Virus record (IMG/VR): IMGVR_UViG_3300050505_000427
DNA: 40,447 bases
Direction: 5' to 3' (one strand)
DNA from: a virus
Part shown: piece by piece, positions 1-40,447 of the stretch
Position numbering within the stretch: position 1 is the stretch's first letter
Layout of the letters: every line of letters starts with the position of its first letter
Position numbers and translations under genes: made by a program
The notes under the pieces: generated by a model
The model's database searches: none
The model's input: the letters and a program-made list of their open reading frames with translations, nothing else
Told to the model about the DNA's origin: nothing

Positions 1-127
1 CTGTCGCGGCCCATGTCGCGGCCCTTGTCGCGTCCCCTGTCGCGGCCCTTGTCGCGGCCTCTGTCGCGGATCTCATGGCGACGTTTATTTTATTTTTTTG
101 TTGCTCTTCTATAAGACAAGTGGCAAG
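1..127. repeat. Terminal direct repeat, exact copy of 40321..40447 (circular-assembly overlap or terminal redundancy)
   Basis: Bases 1-127 are identical letter for letter to the last 127 bases of the window. Confidence 0.97.
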
Positions 128-349
128 AACGCCGGCCATAATAGCCACAAAAGGACTTTGTACGTGTATAATAGTTTTTGGAACGGGTAAATTGGCGGCA
201 GCATATAAACCATCCATAGCTTCCTTAAACTTCACTTTATCATCTTCCGTCATGGCATCCGTATTAAGTATAATCTTAGTCCATTTATCGGCCCATGGCT
301 TTAGTTGGGCTTCATGCTCTGGGGTTAATTCGTATAGTTTTTTCTTCAT
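1..349 (-). CDS. 5' part (N-terminal ~116 aa) of a junction-spanning gene; continues into 39422..40447 (415 aa in total once circularised)
   Basis: The ATG at 349-347 overlaps the stop of the upstream gene (ATGA). The frame stays open down to base 1. The codon phase at base 1 equals the phase at 40321 of ORF 39422..40396. N-terminus: MKKKLYELTPEHEAQLKPWADKWTKIIL... Confidence 0.8.
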   Translation of the reverse strand, partial: MKKKLYELTPEHEAQLKPWADKWTKIILNTDAMTEDDKVKFKEAMDGLYAAANLPVPKTIIHVQSPFVAIMAGVLATCLIEEQQKNKINVAMRSATEAATRAATGDATRAATWAAT

Positions 350-846
350 AATTCCTCCTCCCATTTTCCGGGAGTGCCGTTGATGTAGGCTTGACTTTCG
401 ATGAAAAACTCCGGATGACCAGCTGATAATTCTATGATTAAATCTTCGGGTAAACTTAACCCAGAATAATTGAGCTTCCAAAAAAGTTTTCGATCTTCAA
501 TAAATTGCCGGGGATCACTGTCCACTATATTCCACAATATTCCCCGTTCGGCGCAAAGCACGCGAGGGCCAAAAAATCGGGTAGTAAGGGTCTCTCCGTG
601 GAGGATGCAAAAGTTATCCCATCTGGCCATGGCATTATCTTGTTTCCTGCGGAGGGATGCGGGAGAAAGCTTTCCGCGTTTTGTTGGGCGAGATTCAGGA
701 GGAAGCTTGAGAAAGGCATCAAAAGCCATGTTGATGGCAGCACTGAAACTACAGTCGTTTTCTTTACAGAAGCGATTAATAATTTCGATTCGCTCTGGTG
801 AAAGGCTAACTGACTTGATTTGCTTGAGTTTTTTATCTTTTTCCAT
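346..846 (-). CDS. Hypothetical protein with a possible N-terminal ribbon-helix-helix DNA-binding fold
   Basis: 166-aa ORF. The N-terminus KSVSLSPERIEIINRFCKENDCSFSAAINMAFDAFLK fits a strand-helix-helix pattern. Its stop overlaps the next start (ATGA). Confidence 0.7.
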   Translation of the reverse strand: MEKDKKLKQIKSVSLSPERIEIINRFCKENDCSFSAAINMAFDAFLKLPPESRPTKRGKLSPASLRRKQDNAMARWDNFCILHGETLTTRFFGPRVLCAERGILWNIVDSDPRQFIEDRKLFWKLNYSGLSLPEDLIIELSAGHPEFFIESQAYINGTPGKWEEEL

Positions 847-857
847 CTTAATTATTT

Positions 858-887
858 ATTTTCACATAAGGGGGTAGGCCGTGTCAA
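858..887 (-). promoter_or_regulatory. Candidate sigma70-type promoter for the RHH-like/repeat-protein operon
   Basis: On the minus strand: TTGACA (887-882), 18-nt spacer, GAAAAT (863-858). A T-rich tract lies upstream. The ATG at 846 is 11 nt past the -10 box. Confidence 0.4.
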
Positions 888-1008: not shown

Positions 1009-1437
1009 TTATTCACATTCACGGAGAATGCGAGAGAATAGCTTTCCATGGTCTAACCCCGCGACATGGAGCATCTCGTGGCGAATAGTCCGTTGATAGT
1101 CTTGCTCGCCAAACCAAAAGCATGCTTCAAAAGCAAGAGGGTTAGTGTTTAAGGCAATGATAGGCTTCCCTAGATAGAACGTGACGCCACAGATCTGTAG
1201 CTCATTATTCGGCGGACGAAAAGCAGGAAAGCGATAGAGGTCCTCGTGGAGGACAATCACACTAGAAAGCTCTTTCAGCCTTCGTTGAGCCTCCGCGGGA
1301 ACCAGAGAACAATTCCCGAAATCAAGGATCGCCTCAATAATAGTAGTCTCCTCAAAAGGGGTCGTTCCAAACTGTGGCGGACTGAAGACCAGATATAGCC
1401 AAATGGCTATAGGGCTCAAAAATAGAAAAAGTTTCAT
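1009..1437 (-). CDS. Small secreted metzincin-like zinc metalloprotease (paralog 1)
   Basis: 142 aa with a hydrophobic N-terminus MKLFLFLSPIAIWLYLVF. HEMLHVAGLDH (1048-1080) matches HExxHxxGxxH exactly. Confidence 0.65.
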   Translation of the reverse strand: MKLFLFLSPIAIWLYLVFSPPQFGTTPFEETTIIEAILDFGNCSLVPAEAQRRLKELSSVIVLHEDLYRFPAFRPPNNELQICGVTFYLGKPIIALNTNPLAFEACFWFGEQDYQRTIRHEMLHVAGLDHGKLFSRILRECE

Positions 1438-1682
1438 TCCCCCAGTACCCGCAACCGCACAATAGCCGGGATAAGAATTAGACTTCCCTCATCGTCATCA
1501 CGGTTCTCACTAGAGACCCAATGAAGAAGCTGGACGACGCCTTCTTCCTCATCAACAACCGAAAGCCATCCATTTACTTCTATAAAAACCGGATCTATAT
1601 CTGCGCCACCGATAACATGATCTTTAATCTGTAAAACCACAAAGTGGCCTCGCGCTTTCCTAAGAGCCTTTAGTGTGACCAT
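1434..1682 (-). CDS. Hypothetical protein
   Basis: 82-aa ORF. A GGAGA Shine-Dalgarno sequence lies upstream of the ATG. ATGA overlap with the downstream gene. Confidence 0.7.
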   Translation of the reverse strand: MVTLKALRKARGHFVVLQIKDHVIGGADIDPVFIEVNGWLSVVDEEEGVVQLLHWVSSENRDDDEGSLILIPAIVRLRVLGE

Positions 1683-2341: not shown

Positions 2342-2869
2342 ATGGAAAAGAAACTATCTAATAACCGCAAACACTTCGTCCATCTCTTGGTTCCTCCCGT
2401 TCCCGGCGATGCATTCAACATTGCTAGGCTTCCCCTCGAAGCAATTGCCTTCAGTCTCAACCACATCAATCGCTTCGCTGGCTCAGCCGGATGCCTTGAC
2501 GTGCTTACCCACTCCATTCGCGTCTATGAAATCGTACGAGACAGAGGCGGCGACCGCTCCCAGCGCCTTCAGGCTCTTCTCCATGATGCAGCCGAAGTTG
2601 TAATCGGGGATATCCCCAGCCACGTTAAACATTCCTGTAATCAAATCGAAGCCATTGAAGCCTTTCACTTTACTCGTCTCATGGAAGAATACAATTTACC
2701 GACTCTCTTAGACCCACTCGTCAAGCAAGCTGATAACGAAGCCCTTGTCGAAGAAAAAACCATGATCGAAGCCATGCGCCTCTATAGCAAGCGCAAATTC
2801 CCACAGCGCTACCGAGACCCCCAAAAGCTGTGGCTTGAACTCATGGAATACAATCTTACTAGAGCCTAG
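2342..2869 (+). CDS. HD-domain phosphohydrolase (YfbR/5'-deoxynucleotidase-like)
   Basis: 175 aa. Contains VLTHSIRV, then ALLHDAAEVVIGDIPS (HD motif followed by a downstream D). Confidence 0.8.
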   Translation: MEKKLSNNRKHFVHLLVPPVPGDAFNIARLPLEAIAFSLNHINRFAGSAGCLDVLTHSIRVYEIVRDRGGDRSQRLQALLHDAAEVVIGDIPSHVKHSCNQIEAIEAFHFTRLMEEYNLPTLLDPLVKQADNEALVEEKTMIEAMRLYSKRKFPQRYRDPQKLWLELMEYNLTRA

Positions 2870-2870
2870 A

Positions 2871-3179
2871 ATGGCAAAGAGGCATTTCTTTCTCTTCCGA
2901 ATCCCTAGCGACCAAGAACAACAATCCTACGGTCTACCCCGCCTATGGTGGCCGTTTCCTGCGGAAACGATAGTGGAGCTTATCGAGAATGATCTTCTTT
3001 ACTACGTAAACTCGCCGACCTATGACCGAGCGCTCTCCAAGAACTCCATAGACACAATCCGTGAGGCTCGCGCTTCACGTCTCTGCAAGTGCTCTGCCAA
3101 ACTCATGACCCGTGCAATGCTTCTAGACGAAAAACCTCACGATAGCTTTTGTCCCCTCACTACCCTAAAGGTTCTCTGA
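2871..3179 (+). CDS. Hypothetical protein
   Basis: An internal ATG 2 nt after the upstream stop was chosen over 2835. TGATG overlap with the next gene. Confidence 0.65.
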   Translation: MAKRHFFLFRIPSDQEQQSYGLPRLWWPFPAETIVELIENDLLYYVNSPTYDRALSKNSIDTIREARASRLCKCSAKLMTRAMLLDEKPHDSFCPLTTLKVL

Positions 3180-3640
3180 TGGAAAAGTTTGTCCACCCCG
3201 AAGGCCCCTCTCCGGCCCTTATCATGCTCATAGGAGAAGCCCCCGGTCGCCTAGAGGCCTCCCTCGGCCGTCCTTTTATAGGCTCATCCGGGCAACTTCT
3301 CCGCCGCGCCCTTTCAGACGCAGGCTTTTCCGATAATGAATGTCTCTTCGCAAATACCATAAACTTCCGCCCGGCCAACAACCGAACCCCCACTCCCGAT
3401 GAAATAGCCCTCTACCAAGACGAGCTAATAGCACACTTCTTACTGGCGCAGCCGCGGATTCTCATTTGCCTAGGGCGCACCGCCAGAGAGGCAATACAAA
3501 AATGGCCGCTTCACTTCCTAAAGATGCCTAAAATAGTCTCCTTCTTTTACCACCCTGCCTACGTCCTCCGCAGGCGCCGCCGAGAGCTAGCCGCCTGGCG
3601 AGCGAGCTTTGCCCGTCTCGCGCAAGAACTCGCCTCATAA
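3179..3640 (+). CDS. Uracil-DNA glycosylase, family 4 (phage-type)
   Basis: GEAPGRLEASLGRPFIGSSGQLL (motif A) and YHPAYVLRR (motif B-like). Start taken at MEKFVHPEG. Confidence 0.85.
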   Translation: MEKFVHPEGPSPALIMLIGEAPGRLEASLGRPFIGSSGQLLRRALSDAGFSDNECLFANTINFRPANNRTPTPDEIALYQDELIAHFLLAQPRILICLGRTAREAIQKWPLHFLKMPKIVSFFYHPAYVLRRRRRELAAWRASFARLAQELAS

Positions 3641-36532: not shown

Positions 36533-36805
36533 ATGAGATTGATGTTATTGACTGTGGCTTTGTTGGCGTTTGGGACGAGCGTAATTGCGCAAGAGGCGCC
36601 GCAGGATGAGGGCAGGACGCTGGCACAACAGCTTCAAGAGGGGATTCAAATGTTTGGTGCGTTGTGCGCGCCGATTGGGGCGAGTATTTGCGTGGATCAT
36701 TGTTTGCTGAAGGGGAAAGAGTCTACAGGTAAGATGGCTGTGGATTTGAGAGCGAATGCCCTTTATTGTGAGTGCCAGGAGCTTAAGGAAAAGCGGACTA
36801 GCTAG
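36533..36805 (+). CDS. Secreted Cys-containing protein
   Basis: Signal peptide MRLMLLTVALLAFGTSVIAQE. Five Cys residues in the mature part. Confidence 0.6.
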   Translation: MRLMLLTVALLAFGTSVIAQEAPQDEGRTLAQQLQEGIQMFGALCAPIGASICVDHCLLKGKESTGKMAVDLRANALYCECQELKEKRTS

Positions 36806-37229: not shown

Positions 37230-37460
37230 CTATCTTTCCCTTCTCGTGAGCTTACGAAGAGCGGCGTCAAATTTTCTGCGGGCTTGACGGGCTAGGTCTT
37301 GCTCATATCTAAATTGATCGCAGATGTGGTCCCAGTCGTCGTTAACGATGGGAGAGAGGGAAAAGAACTTTTCATCGCAGTTGGTGCAGATGAGGGCATA
37401 GTTGCTTTCATAACATAGAAAGCGAAGCAAAGTGCCGTAAGCACAGGTATGGCATCTCAT
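37230..37460 (-). CDS. Zinc-ribbon protein
   Basis: 76 aa with CHTC...CTNC. ATGA overlap with the upstream metzincin gene. Confidence 0.6.
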   Translation of the reverse strand: MRCHTCAYGTLLRFLCYESNYALICTNCDEKFFSLSPIVNDDWDHICDQFRYEQDLARQARRKFDAALRKLTRRER

Positions 37461-37924
37461 CTGAAAGTCTCGCGGGCAGAGTTTCCGGCGCCGGGTCCGA
37501 GACAGGTGTCGAGAATGCCGGCCATTTCGGGGCCGTGGGCGAAGCCTGCGATGTGGAGAAGTTCATGCATCATGACTGCATTTTTGGGGCAGACAATGTC
37601 TGCTTTTGTCTCGTCTAGTTCAATGGTATTGCTGAAGGGATGGGCCATGGCGCAGACCTTTTTATTTTCCTCTGTTTTTGGGAGAGGTTGGAAAGAGGGA
37701 GGGGCTATTACCATATGGGTAGTTAGATAGTCATGGTTGATGGGCCAGCCGGCGCGGAAGAACTCACAGGATGTTAATTTAAGACTCATGCGGACGACTC
37801 GATCTTTAATGATCTTGGTTTGTTCTTGAGACCAGCCTTCAATTTCTAGGCTGGGCCCTACTTGAGCCACGGCAGGGTTAAAAATTAAACAGCCTAGTAA
37901 AACTAACATAAGTAGAGAGCTCAT
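37457..37924 (-). CDS. Small secreted or lipoprotein metzincin-like zinc metalloprotease (paralog 2)
   Basis: 155 aa with signal MSSLLMLVLLGC (lipobox-like). CAMAHPFSNTIELDE. HELLHIAGFAH (37535-37567) matches HExxHxxGxxH. Confidence 0.7.
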   Translation of the reverse strand: MSSLLMLVLLGCLIFNPAVAQVGPSLEIEGWSQEQTKIIKDRVVRMSLKLTSCEFFRAGWPINHDYLTTHMVIAPPSFQPLPKTEENKKVCAMAHPFSNTIELDETKADIVCPKNAVMMHELLHIAGFAHGPEMAGILDTCLGPGAGNSARETFR

Positions 37925-37980: not shown

Positions 37981-38532
37981 TTATTTCTTCTCCAACAAAA
38001 CTCTATCATCCGTTCCGACGCCCGTTAGGACGTAGCAGACTACAAACATGAAGTTACAGAGGGCGTGGGCCTCATGAGAGAGGCCGCTTTCGGGGTCAGT
38101 GGTTTCGCCATTTGCTATGGCGAGCAAATGGCGGCGCCAAGAGTTAAGCACTCTAGAGAAGGCCATGCCGTTAGTATAATTTAGGCTAGCATACTTTTTT
38201 GCACCGAAAGAAAGAACCGGAGAAATAATTGAAGCAATTAGTTTAGCAGAAGTTTGCCAAACTTGTTGTAATGAACTAACATCATCATAATAAAACCATT
38301 GATTAAGCGCATTATCCGCGCCGTCAAGCAATTGACGCGGATTAATGATTCCTTGTCTCCAAACCTCCGGGTGAATATGGTGCAGCTCGGGCTTGCCGGT
38401 GTCGTAGCGGAGAGCTTCAATGGTATGGGCATGGCTTCCTAACGGAGGAATTTGTTGAGTATGACAGCCGCTGTCCTCACATTCTTCTATGTAATATCCT
38501 TTGTCTCCCGTATTTCCATACCATACACACAT
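37981..38532 (-). CDS. MazZ-like dATP/dGTP diphosphohydrolase-domain protein
   Basis: YDTGKPELHHIHP...FGAKKYASLNY...RRHLLAIANGETTDPESGLSHEAHALCNFMFVV matches the remembered family pattern D.GK...Ga.KY...RH...GE..D.ESGL.H..HA.CN. Confidence 0.65.
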   Translation of the reverse strand: MCVWYGNTGDKGYYIEECEDSGCHTQQIPPLGSHAHTIEALRYDTGKPELHHIHPEVWRQGIINPRQLLDGADNALNQWFYYDDVSSLQQVWQTSAKLIASIISPVLSFGAKKYASLNYTNGMAFSRVLNSWRRHLLAIANGETTDPESGLSHEAHALCNFMFVVCYVLTGVGTDDRVLLEKK

Positions 38533-39421: not shown

Positions 39422-40447
39422 TTAGCTTTCGCTAATGATTTCATATTTACTAGTGTCTATTCCCATGGTTGCGAGGCGCACTAGCTCTGCGTTATCGCAG
39501 TCTGTTGGCACAAGGCCGAACACGTTTTGAAACTCTTCGGGCGTACGTGGTACACCTAAAAATGTTTCCTGTTCTTGGAGAGTATCATGCCAGGTGACTT
39601 TTAGCAAGCGAATATTTTCATTGTCGTTAGGTAGACGCACTTCCCAAAGCTCGATTGGCTTTGTGCTGCCGCGCGTCGAAGGTGCGCTTGATATAAATTT
39701 GCCATTTAGCGCGCGCACTAGATCATCAAAGCCGCCGCGCATGTTACGAAGTACGGCCATGCGAACATCATTATTTGGCTCTGCTAGCAATTCTTTAGCA
39801 TTTATGGGTTTTTCAATATATTTAGCAGGTACGAAAGTACCATTGAGTGCGTAAAGGGCACTGCCATCGCGCCATTTTTTAAAGGGACCCGTGGTACAGT
39901 GGGGTCTATTTTGAGCGTTCATTTTGATATACTCTGGACGGTCAGATACTATAACAAAGTCTCGATGCATAAAACGAGCACCCCCATATATTTCTGCATT
40001 TTTATAATGACGCCATTTCTCATAAATTGGAAGGTTTAGACCCACTATATCATCGAAAAAAGAATAAAAAGAGGTCGACTGAGACCATTCATTTCCAAGA
40101 TGTAAGAAATCCCATACAGAAGAAAACTTTTGTAATACATTTTTAAAATTTTTACCTTCGAAAGATTCAAAAATATGTTTAAGATCCTCATTATTTAAAA
40201 AACCAGTATAAAAGGTATTTAAGTCTGTCGCGGCCCTTGTCGCGTCCCCTGTCGCGTCCCCTGTCGCGGCCCCTGTCGCGGCCCATGTCGCGTCCCTTGT
40301 CGCGGCCTCTGTCGCGGCCTCTGTCGCGGCCCATGTCGCGGCCCTTGTCGCGTCCCCTGTCGCGGCCCTTGTCGCGGCCTCTGTCGCGGATCTCATGGCG
40401 ACGTTTATTTTATTTTTTTGTTGCTCTTCTATAAGACAAGTGGCAAG
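39422..40447 (-). CDS. 3' part of the junction-spanning gene: tetrapeptide-repeat segment plus a C-terminal domain resembling DUF6745
   Basis: The ORF has no stop between 40396 and the window end. It contains the repeat ATEAATRAATGDATRAATWAAT... The C-terminal motif FVIVSDRP...RPHCTTGPFKKWRDGSALYALNGTFVP matches my memory of the DUF6745 family. Confidence 0.85.
   Translation of the reverse strand, partial: LATCLIEEQQKNKINVAMRSATEAATRAATGDATRAATWAATEAATEAATRDATWAATGAATGDATGDATRAATDLNTFYTGFLNNEDLKHIFESFEGKNFKNVLQKFSSVWDFLHLGNEWSQSTSFYSFFDDIVGLNLPIYEKWRHYKNAEIYGGARFMHRDFVIVSDRPEYIKMNAQNRPHCTTGPFKKWRDGSALYALNGTFVPAKYIEKPINAKELLAEPNNDVRMAVLRNMRGGFDDLVRALNGKFISSAPSTRGSTKPIELWEVRLPNDNENIRLLKVTWHDTLQEQETFLGVPRTPEEFQNVFGLVPTDCDNAELVRLATMGIDTSKYEIISES
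40226..40393. repeat. 12-bp tandem array, 13 units plus 1 degenerate unit, consensus TGTCGCG[G/T]CC[C/T][T/C/A]
   Basis: Units counted directly from the sequence. Units 9-14 are also present at 2..73 because of the terminal duplication. Confidence 0.95.
40321..40447. repeat. Terminal direct repeat, exact copy of 1..127
   Basis: Identical to 1-127. It covers the last 6 units of the 12-bp array plus 54 bp of unique sequence. Confidence 0.97.

Follow-up and report, generated by a model that had tools for sequence, protein, structure and literature searches.

The 40,447-nucleotide virus sequence IMGVR_UViG_3300050505_000427 encodes two small proteins, p1 and p2, each with a putative zinc site close to its C-terminus; by "the window" we mean this whole stretch of DNA at its full length. 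An initial sequence-only reading had described p1 as a miniature, secreted, metzincin-like protease encoded by a phage, and as the first of two paralogs. Here, we analysed both genes together with their homologues, their predicted structure and their genomic surroundings. The two genes and their main features are the following (↓ marks a cleavage site):

1009..1437, minus strand: p1, a mini-metzincin-like protein of subfamily A, 142 amino acids (aa); supported by the open reading frame (ORF), an identical protein on public 40-kb contigs, the ratio of non-synonymous to synonymous divergence (dN/dS) and an AlphaFold2 model
1375..1437, minus strand: p1 residues 1-21, hydrophobic signal-like or anchor segment (Kyte-Doolittle maximum 2.23; synonymous-only differences)
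1309..1311, minus strand: invariant Cys43 of p1 (alignment)
1189..1191, minus strand: invariant Cys83 of p1 (alignment)
1120..1122, minus strand: invariant Cys106 of p1, just ahead of the active-site helix (alignment)
1048..1080, minus strand: p1 residues 120-130, HEMLHVAGLDH, putative zinc site H120/H124/H130 with putative general base E121 (invariant in 8 of 8 members)
1015..1044, minus strand: p1 residues 132-141, short helix ending in invariant Cys141 (alignment, AlphaFold2 model)
37457..37924, minus strand: p2, the paralogue, subfamily B, 155 aa (ORF; four Cys plus lipobox-like Cys12)
37862..37924, minus strand: p2 residues 1-21, signal-peptide-like, with a lipobox-like VLLGC and an alternative AVA↓Q cleavage site (Cys column common to P0005, P0006 and P0008)
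37535..37567, minus strand: p2 residues 120-130, HELLHIAGFAH (ORF translation)

Translation confirmed what the sequence-only reading had seen in the two ORFs. The 142-aa product of p1 carries HEMLHVAGLDH at residues 120-130, with 12 residues following the third His, and the second gene carries HELLHIAGFAH at identical residue numbers. The essentials of the sequence-only reading are supported, and its words miniature, phage-encoded and paralogous were borne out. In the six-frame translation of the window, HExxHxxGxxH occurs twice, compared to 0.003 occurrences per window in 300 shuffles, whereas plain HExxH is at chance level (4 observed, 2.4 expected from shuffles), so that only the extended motif is non-random. 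Global alignment of p1 and p2 gave 27% identity with four Cys positions in common, while a BLASTP alignment of the pair was limited to the C-terminal 22 residues (E 1e-5).

p1 is a real phage gene under purifying selection. A contig from a JGI metagenome (L010) carries a variant with 85% identity at the DNA level and 91% at the protein level, differing from p1 by 47 synonymous and 13 non-synonymous codons. According to the Nei-Gojobori method, dS is 0.82 and dN is 0.049, resulting in a dN/dS of 0.06. Codons 1-20, which encode the hydrophobic segment, contain four synonymous and no non-synonymous differences, showing that the N-terminus of p1 is translated and constrained. Furthermore, the start codon of p1 overlaps the stop codon of an upstream 82-aa ORF as ATGA.

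An exhaustive HMMER search of 1.84 billion cluster representatives with a profile of the mature parts of p1 and p2 (E <= 1e-3) yielded eight proteins, namely p1, p2 and six others of 142-177 aa. The L010 variant was the sole match of the JGI metagenome scan and is the ninth sequence of the family. When p1, p2 and the 8-sequence profile were used in word-indexed searches for homologues, nothing came back but the query proteins or members already found. No relatives were found in IMG/VR with the family alignments, PolA and TerL, or in the GTDB genomes with the family alignment and TerL. No family member scored above threshold in Pfam, NCBIfam or PHROGs, and single-sequence searches of these three collections and of PDB sequences gave either nothing or sub-threshold matches to the motif only. 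All six homologues lie on short, dense, same-strand gene arrays with phage-type genes (ClpP, PD-(D/E)XK nuclease, DnaB, PolA, integrase, methyltransferase), and several of their contigs have other genes in common with the window phage. The family is so far confined to phage-like DNA, with about nine sequences among the 1.84 billion representatives and the metagenome. On two of the contigs, a gene for a ClpP-family protease is located in the same early-type array as the mini-metzincin-like gene (L008, 1162..1767; L009, 4345..4911); in L008, it overlaps that gene from directly upstream. ClpP is absent from the window phage.

At only 21-38% identity to p1, the eight aligned members nevertheless share an invariant HExLHxxGxxH and four invariant Cys. 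The invariant columns are C43, C83, C106, H120, E121, L123, H124, G127, H130 and C141, and the L010 variant likewise retains all invariant motif residues. The sequence-only reading had staked its proposal on the conservation of the motif among homologues, and H120, E121, L123, H124, G127 and H130 indeed proved identical in 8 of 8. The extended metzincin motif HEXXHXXGXX(H/D) is thus present in p1, p2, all eight aligned members and the 91% variant. The family divides into subfamily A (p1, the L010 variant, P0003, P0004 and P0007), with exactly four Cys and a plain hydrophobic N-terminus, and subfamily B (p2, P0005, P0006 and P0008), with a fifth Cys at a shared lipobox-like position. The distance from the invariant Cys ahead of the active-site helix to the first His is 8 residues in p2 (C112/H120), P0005, P0007 and P0008, 9 in P0006, and 12-14 in p1 (14), P0003 and P0004.

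Beyond the third His, the proteins continue for 12-31 residues, of which about 11 are conserved. The only conserved stretch consists of G/S/E followed by x-[FML]-x-x-[ILV]-[LIM]-x-x-C. In p1, the sole element in this region comprises residues 132-141, with conserved hydrophobic residues at 134 (F, M or L in the alignment), 137 and 138. Six of the nine sequences (p1, L010, P0003, P0004, P0007 and P0006) contain no Met after the motif.

A hydrophobic signal-like segment is located at the N-terminus of every family member. In p1, residues 3-18 (LFLFLSPIAIWLYLVF) are strongly hydrophobic, and the best 11-residue Kyte-Doolittle mean gives the maximum listed above. Subfamily B members (p2, P0005, P0006 and P0008) exhibit lipobox-like motifs (VLLGC, TLNGC, TLVGC and LSLGC), and a -3/-1 cleavage site is seen in most subfamily A members, for example SPA↓QFG (L010 variant, P0003) or AVA↓S. 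These features suggest that the protein is exported; given the Pro around its expected cleavage site, p1 may remain membrane-anchored. Because the four Cys are dispersed in a signal-bearing protein, two disulfides are far likelier than a cytoplasmic Cys4 site, and the four residues would probably be oxidised to two disulfides in the envelope.

AlphaFold2 provided with p1 and p2 only reached a predicted local distance difference test score (pLDDT) of 40; a usable model was obtained from the 8-sequence alignment (pLDDT 89.3, predicted template modelling score 0.80). The model begins with a signal-like helix of lower confidence (9-18), followed by helices 27-41 and 48-55, strands 60-65, 84-89 and 91-97, helix 100-106 and a long helix 111-125. 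The latter bears H120, E121 and H124 and ends near the invariant G127, with H130 in the turn after G127 and a final helix 132-140 just ahead of Cys141. As modelled, this order of elements is that of a zincin N-terminal subdomain with a one-helix remnant of the C-terminal subdomain. Foldseek searches with the model retrieved from the PDB the mini-zincin 3E11, YbeY (1XM5, TMq 0.45), MMP-1, anthrax lethal factor, MMP-13, NleC, PPEP-3 and 2EJQ, and from BFVD viral SprT-like, IrrE-like and MMP-like proteins. In both lists, the leading entries are almost wholly zincin-type, though each match is weak (best E 0.17 in the PDB and 0.05 in BFVD; template modelling score (TM) <= 0.45). The sequence-only reading had proposed structure prediction as a check on the zincin-like site; the predicted placement of HExxH on a long helix and of the third His in the next turn, with zincin-type proteins as the top, though non-significant, fold matches, is in line with it. 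The three His would presumably converge on one metal, and the Cys would presumably pair.

The first and last 127 bp of the window (1..127 and 40321..40447) are identical, which indicates that the assembly is circular, with a 40,320-bp unit. Two ENA assemblies contain the same genome as 40.35-40.41-kb contigs. On a differently permuted public contig, p1 and p2 belong to one module and share a strand, with ~3.3 kb between them. The two genes are therefore not at opposite genome ends; the module crosses the window junction. All minus-strand genes form this one leftward module, which runs opposite to the plus-strand genes for replication, packaging, structure and lysis. Its genes, in transcription order, and the neighbours of p1 and p2 are:

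minus strand, first part: 74-aa ORF, 82-aa ORF, p1, 166-aa protein, 379-aa DUF6745-like protein
minus strand, continued: 112-aa, 98-aa (DUF8296) and 74-aa ORFs, 183-aa protein with a dATP/dGTP diphosphohydrolase N-domain, p2, 76-aa ORF
1434..1682, minus strand: 82-aa ORF in translational coupling with p1 (ATGA), lacking both a signal peptide and a family match
346..846, minus strand: 166-aa protein with a weakly ribbon-helix-helix-like N-terminus, in synteny with p1-type genes
37230..37460, minus strand: 76-aa ORF with CxxC...CxxC (zinc-ribbon-like), its start overlapping the p2 stop as ATGA; absent from public gene calls

A homologue of the 166-aa protein follows the p1-type gene in all four loci that extend far enough; homologues are 81% (L010), 35% (L006) and 28% (L007) identical. 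Its N-terminal 40 residues gave sub-threshold matches to CopG (E 0.065) and to Pfam ribbon-helix-helix families (E 0.01-0.07). The 160-bp gap that separates p1 from this gene contains a promoter-like TTGACA-18-GAAAAT with TG at 887..858 on the minus strand.

The plus strand encodes replication proteins (PD-(D/E)XK nuclease, AAA_24, PolA and a DUF3987 helicase/primase-like protein), structural and packaging proteins (large terminase, major head protein, a beta-helix tail protein and, at sub-threshold score, a P22-like portal) and a lysis cassette with an M15_3 endolysin. The last gene of this cassette, after the endolysin, lies at 36533..36805 (plus strand) and encodes a 90-aa protein that combines six Cys with a clear signal peptide (…VIAQ↓EAP), making it a further small, Cys-rich and exported protein of this phage. 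Searches of the window phage gave neither an integrase nor a repressor family, and no spanin-like genes were recognised. In view of the sub-threshold portal match and the beta-helix tail protein, the podovirus type named in the sequence-only reading is tentative. Megablast against 50,697 phage records gave no match, tblastn against cultured phages gave no close relative, and neither IMG/VR nor GTDB contained relatives of its PolA or TerL. PolA is at most 26% identical to polymerases of cultured phages, and for most of its structural proteins neither Pfam nor PHROG gave a match. Judged by these comparisons, the window phage is very distant from cultured or catalogued phages.

Two further features of this genome are worth recording. 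A 12-bp tandem repeat (CTGTCGCGGCCC, about 14 + 6 copies) at 40225..40389 and 1..69 is part of a coding region; read on the minus strand, it specifies repeated tetrapeptides (ATRA/ATGD/ATEA...) at the N-terminus of the 379-aa protein (weak DUF6745 match) and is possibly a contingency or variable region. A set of nucleotide-pool and DNA-base genes at 2342..2869 (plus strand), 3149..3640 (plus strand) and 37981..38532 (minus strand) comprises an HD-domain YfbR-like 5'-deoxynucleotidase (with an additional weak match to a phage dATP triphosphohydrolase PHROG), a UDG-superfamily glycosylase and the dATP/dGTP diphosphohydrolase N-domain protein (PF18909). This set might point to the metabolism of modified bases; the window phage showed no PurZ-like gene.

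We consider it reasonably probable that p1 and p2 represent a new and rare family of exported, disulfide-stabilised, mini-metzincin-like zinc peptidases that act on the host envelope. In the mechanism we propose, both proteins would be exported through Sec; p1-type members would be cleaved by signal peptidase I or left N-terminally anchored, p2-type members would become lipoproteins, and the four Cys would form two disulfides in the cell envelope. One zinc ion would be bound through H120, H124 and H130, with E121 acting as the general base for peptide-bond hydrolysis, and residue 134 (F/M/L), together with the disulfide-tethered C-terminal helix, would replace the Met-turn and the C-terminal subdomain. 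That the catalytic Glu is invariant at such low sequence identity speaks for catalysis over a role in metal binding alone. The target, speculatively, would be a host envelope protein (a receptor, an outer-membrane or a periplasmic protein) whose cleavage would block superinfection or remodel the envelope; with one copy soluble or anchored and the other lipid-anchored, the two might reach different compartments.

Exclusion and receptor masking are the classical tasks of exported proteins from phage accessory modules, as with T4 Imm and Sp or T5 Llp. Listeria Mtz, the single phage-derived exported metzincin studied so far, acts on a lipoprotein of the envelope and changes wall integrity (PMC8235301). 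For these reasons, the cleavage of an envelope protein seems the likeliest task. Since neither copy resides in the lysis cassette, we would speculate that superinfection exclusion or receptor inactivation is somewhat likelier than an aid to lysis. A literature search on phage periplasmic metalloproteases in superinfection exclusion found nothing relevant. A more far-reaching version of this reading, which we put forward tentatively and regard as rather doubtful, holds that the proteins are active, phage-restricted mini-metzincins with the smallest His-His-His zincin scaffold (~115-120 aa mature). Here, one disulfide-stapled helix would stand in for the C-terminal subdomain and the Met-turn, and two differently anchored paralogues would cleave host envelope proteins, for example the phage's own receptor, as a form of proteolytic superinfection exclusion or envelope takeover not described so far.

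Several observations weigh against an exported peptidase. The family alignment contains no conserved Met after H130, so that the Met-turn, the structural hallmark of metzincins, is missing, and with ~11 conserved residues after the third ligand the S1' side of any substrate cleft would be rudimentary. The fold matches are individually non-significant (E >= 0.05, TM <= 0.45). None of the evidence points to a substrate. As for the export signals, p1 reads SPP with Pro at -1/+1 of the expected cleavage and thus has no canonical -3/-1 site, while the lipobox of p2 lies just 11 residues from the start with no basic residue before it. The earlier description as secreted is supported indirectly, by the hydrophobic N-termini of all members, the lipobox-like Cys of four and the four invariant Cys. 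Finally, other known mini scaffolds are without demonstrated peptidase activity (PMC3890501).

This last point leads to a different explanation, in which p1 and p2 are exported zinc-binding proteins without proteolytic activity. They could be pseudo-proteases or binding modules that mask or jam a host envelope component, or non-peptide hydrolases, with the motif serving metal-dependent folding or binding. Known exported early phage proteins act mostly by binding, and both the cleft-shaping C-terminal subdomain and the Met-turn are missing here. We nonetheless consider this explanation unlikely, since Glu121, the three His and the Gly are invariant across such divergent proteins, and pseudo-enzymes usually lose the catalytic residue first. 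In its favour, a comparable mini-Glu-zincin showed no detectable activity, and M94, the family of the mini-zincins, is listed as hypothetical (PMC3890501). An exported zinc peptidase could also act on the cell wall or the lysis pathway, for instance on stem peptides, on Lpp/OmpA-type anchors or in lipoprotein processing, and so sensitise the cell to the endolysin. The position of p2 would suit such a role, as it is second-to-last in the leftward module and ends about 650 bp from the convergent lysis cassette; this cassette combines the M15_3 endolysin and the six-Cys signal-peptide protein in a genome without recognised spanin-like genes. There is also a precedent in the Listeria metzincin Mtz, which cleaves Tim and sensitises cells to phage lysins (PMC8235301). 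However, both copies are outside the lysis cassette and on the opposite strand, neither has a TIMP-like or lipoprotein partner gene next to it, the neighbours are without signal peptides, and the phage already has an M15 enzyme. To our knowledge, HExxH enzymes are not usual peptidoglycan peptidases. Taken together, we consider a wall or lysis function unlikely.

Two further explanations place the proteins on the cytoplasmic side. An ImmA/IrrE-type regulatory protease could use the N-terminus as a mere tether and act on the adjacent ribbon-helix-helix-like regulator as an anti-repressor switch. The recurrence of the 166-aa homologue after p1-type genes, its weakly CopG-like N-terminus and the presence of viral IrrE-like and SprT-like proteins in the weak fold matches are compatible with this idea. 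On the other hand, synteny may merely reflect related phages, p2-type genes have no neighbour of the 166-aa type, and p1 and the 166-aa gene are separated by a gap with a promoter-like site. Moreover, no match to Peptidase_M78/ImmA was obtained in Pfam or PHROG at E <= 10, and the four invariant dispersed Cys and the lipobox-type signals of the sister subfamily fit an extracytoplasmic protein, all of which makes a regulatory protease quite improbable. Least credible is a YbeY-like metal-dependent endoribonuclease. YbeY is of similar size, has its motif in a similar position (H114, H118 and H124 of 155 aa) and of similar sequence (HGSLHLLGYDH), reached the top TM-score in the PDB and gave sub-threshold model matches in three of eight members. 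Yet YbeY has Gly/Ser where the family has the invariant Glu, the hhalign probability was 17% over 19 columns, all matches fell far below curated thresholds, and YbeY is a cytoplasmic protein with neither signal peptide nor conserved Cys. With this low hhalign probability, the invariant Glu121 and the signal-like N-termini, we rejected the RNase reading.

If active, the proteins would push down the lower size limit known for metzincin-type peptidases and provide a natural experiment on whether a three-His zincin site needs a Met-turn and a C-terminal subdomain, a long-debated point. For phage biology, they would mean that the accessory modules of an uncultured phage lineage include an exported effector that works as an enzyme; exported accessory proteins known so far mostly bind rather than cleave. 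Annotation pipelines do not see the family at present, as neither Pfam, NCBIfam nor PHROGs contains it. A protease scaffold that is compact, secreted and stabilised by disulfides may also be of practical interest.

How does the family relate to known zincins? The term metzincin-like, as used in the sequence-only reading, suits the family: the extended motif is present, and the Met-turn, whose absence that reading had anticipated, is not. The family is therefore not a strict metzincin, and we place it in no existing family. At the sequence level, the astacins (M12A, PF01400; 1AST, meprins) are closest. The family profile matched meprins and astacin among PDB sequences at E 0.0045-0.01 over 24 residues, including the Cys ahead of the active-site helix, and hhalign aligned the family with astacin at 82% probability over 23 columns (the astacin query was verified to be identical to 6SAZ/1AST, and E. 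coli YbeY was verified against 1XM5). The matched stretch also takes in HExxHxxGFxH. Astacins are secreted proteins with two disulfides, and a C-terminal Cys directly follows their last helix. Astacin Cys84 lies 8 residues before His92; p2 has its invariant Cys at the same spacing, and HMMER and hhalign both align the invariant Cys with astacin and meprins. In contrast, the HEXXHXXGFXHEXXRXDRD extension, the SXMHY Met-turn with its Tyr ligand and the ~100-residue C-terminal subdomain of astacins are absent here, the match spans 23-24 residues only, with extended alignments being ambiguous, and astacin is missing from the top 50 PDB fold matches of the p1 model. Against Pfam PF01400, p1 gave no match and p2 scored 11.5 bits over residues 111-130 only, below the cut-off of 22.5; two of the eight members matched at all (best E 0.06). 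We also considered a mini-astacin, that is, an astacin that has lost its C-terminal subdomain but kept both disulfides. This candidate is unestablished, as the hhalign match is limited to the 23 motif columns, greedy and global alignments put the Cys in inconsistent registers, and astacin is absent from the top fold matches. An origin as a truncated astacin is thus a lead, not a result.

In architecture, the mini-zincins (MEROPS M94, PF06262/DUF1025; Acel_2062, 3E11; TTHA0227, 2EJQ) are closest. At ~113 aa, they are a minimal zincin scaffold that lacks a Met-turn and carries its motif close to the C-terminus, and a C-terminal aromatic residue has been proposed to take the place of the Met (PMC3890501), which compares with position 134 of the family. 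The minimal scaffold, the C-terminal motif and the lack of a conserved Met are thus common to both, and 3E11 was the top PDB fold match, albeit a weak one (E 0.17, TM 0.32-0.38), with 2EJQ also listed. Mini-zincins differ in their third ligand, which is Asp (HEXXHXXGXXD) instead of His, and are intracellular, acidic proteins without signal peptide or conserved Cys, whereas the family described here has signal or lipobox N-termini and four invariant Cys. They are also cellular (about 500 bacterial homologues), compared to a family found on phage-like contigs only, and no family member matched PF06262 at E <= 10. The smallest characterised metzincin, snapalysin (M7; 1KUH/1C7K), is likewise secreted, at ~130 aa, and its C-terminal subdomain is essentially one helix; it retains a conserved Met ~10 residues after the third ligand (PMC3890501), which the family lacks at a smaller mature size of about 115-120 aa. 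Neither Pfam nor PDB sequence searches with the family matched snapalysin.

YbeY (UPF0054; 1XM5) resembles the family in its length of about 150 aa, the relative position of its three-His motif and its metzincin-like fold, and differs in the points given above, including the lack of a catalytic Glu; its models PF02130 and TIGR00043 gave sub-threshold matches only, in three of eight members (E >= 0.012). ImmA/IrrE (M78, PF06114) gave none in Pfam or PHROG at E <= 10. The clearest precedent for phages carrying exported metzincin-type enzymes is Mtz with its substrate Tim, a secreted prophage enzyme that acts on a lipoprotein of Listeria (PMC8235301). Like the present family, Mtz is phage-associated, Sec-exported and equipped with HEXXHXXGXXH/D, and it acts on the cell envelope. 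It differs in having a Met-turn (AIMLD), a TIMP-like lipoprotein substrate partner, a Gram-positive prophage background and a CI/Cro-type switch, whereas neither a Met-turn nor such a partner gene is found here, and tblastn against phages revealed no detectable sequence relation to Mtz. What distinguishes p1 and p2 from all of these systems is the combination of a three-His mini scaffold without Met-turn, Sec or lipoprotein export signals with invariant Cys, an occurrence on phage-like contigs only and extreme rarity, which together make this a new family within a known superfamily.

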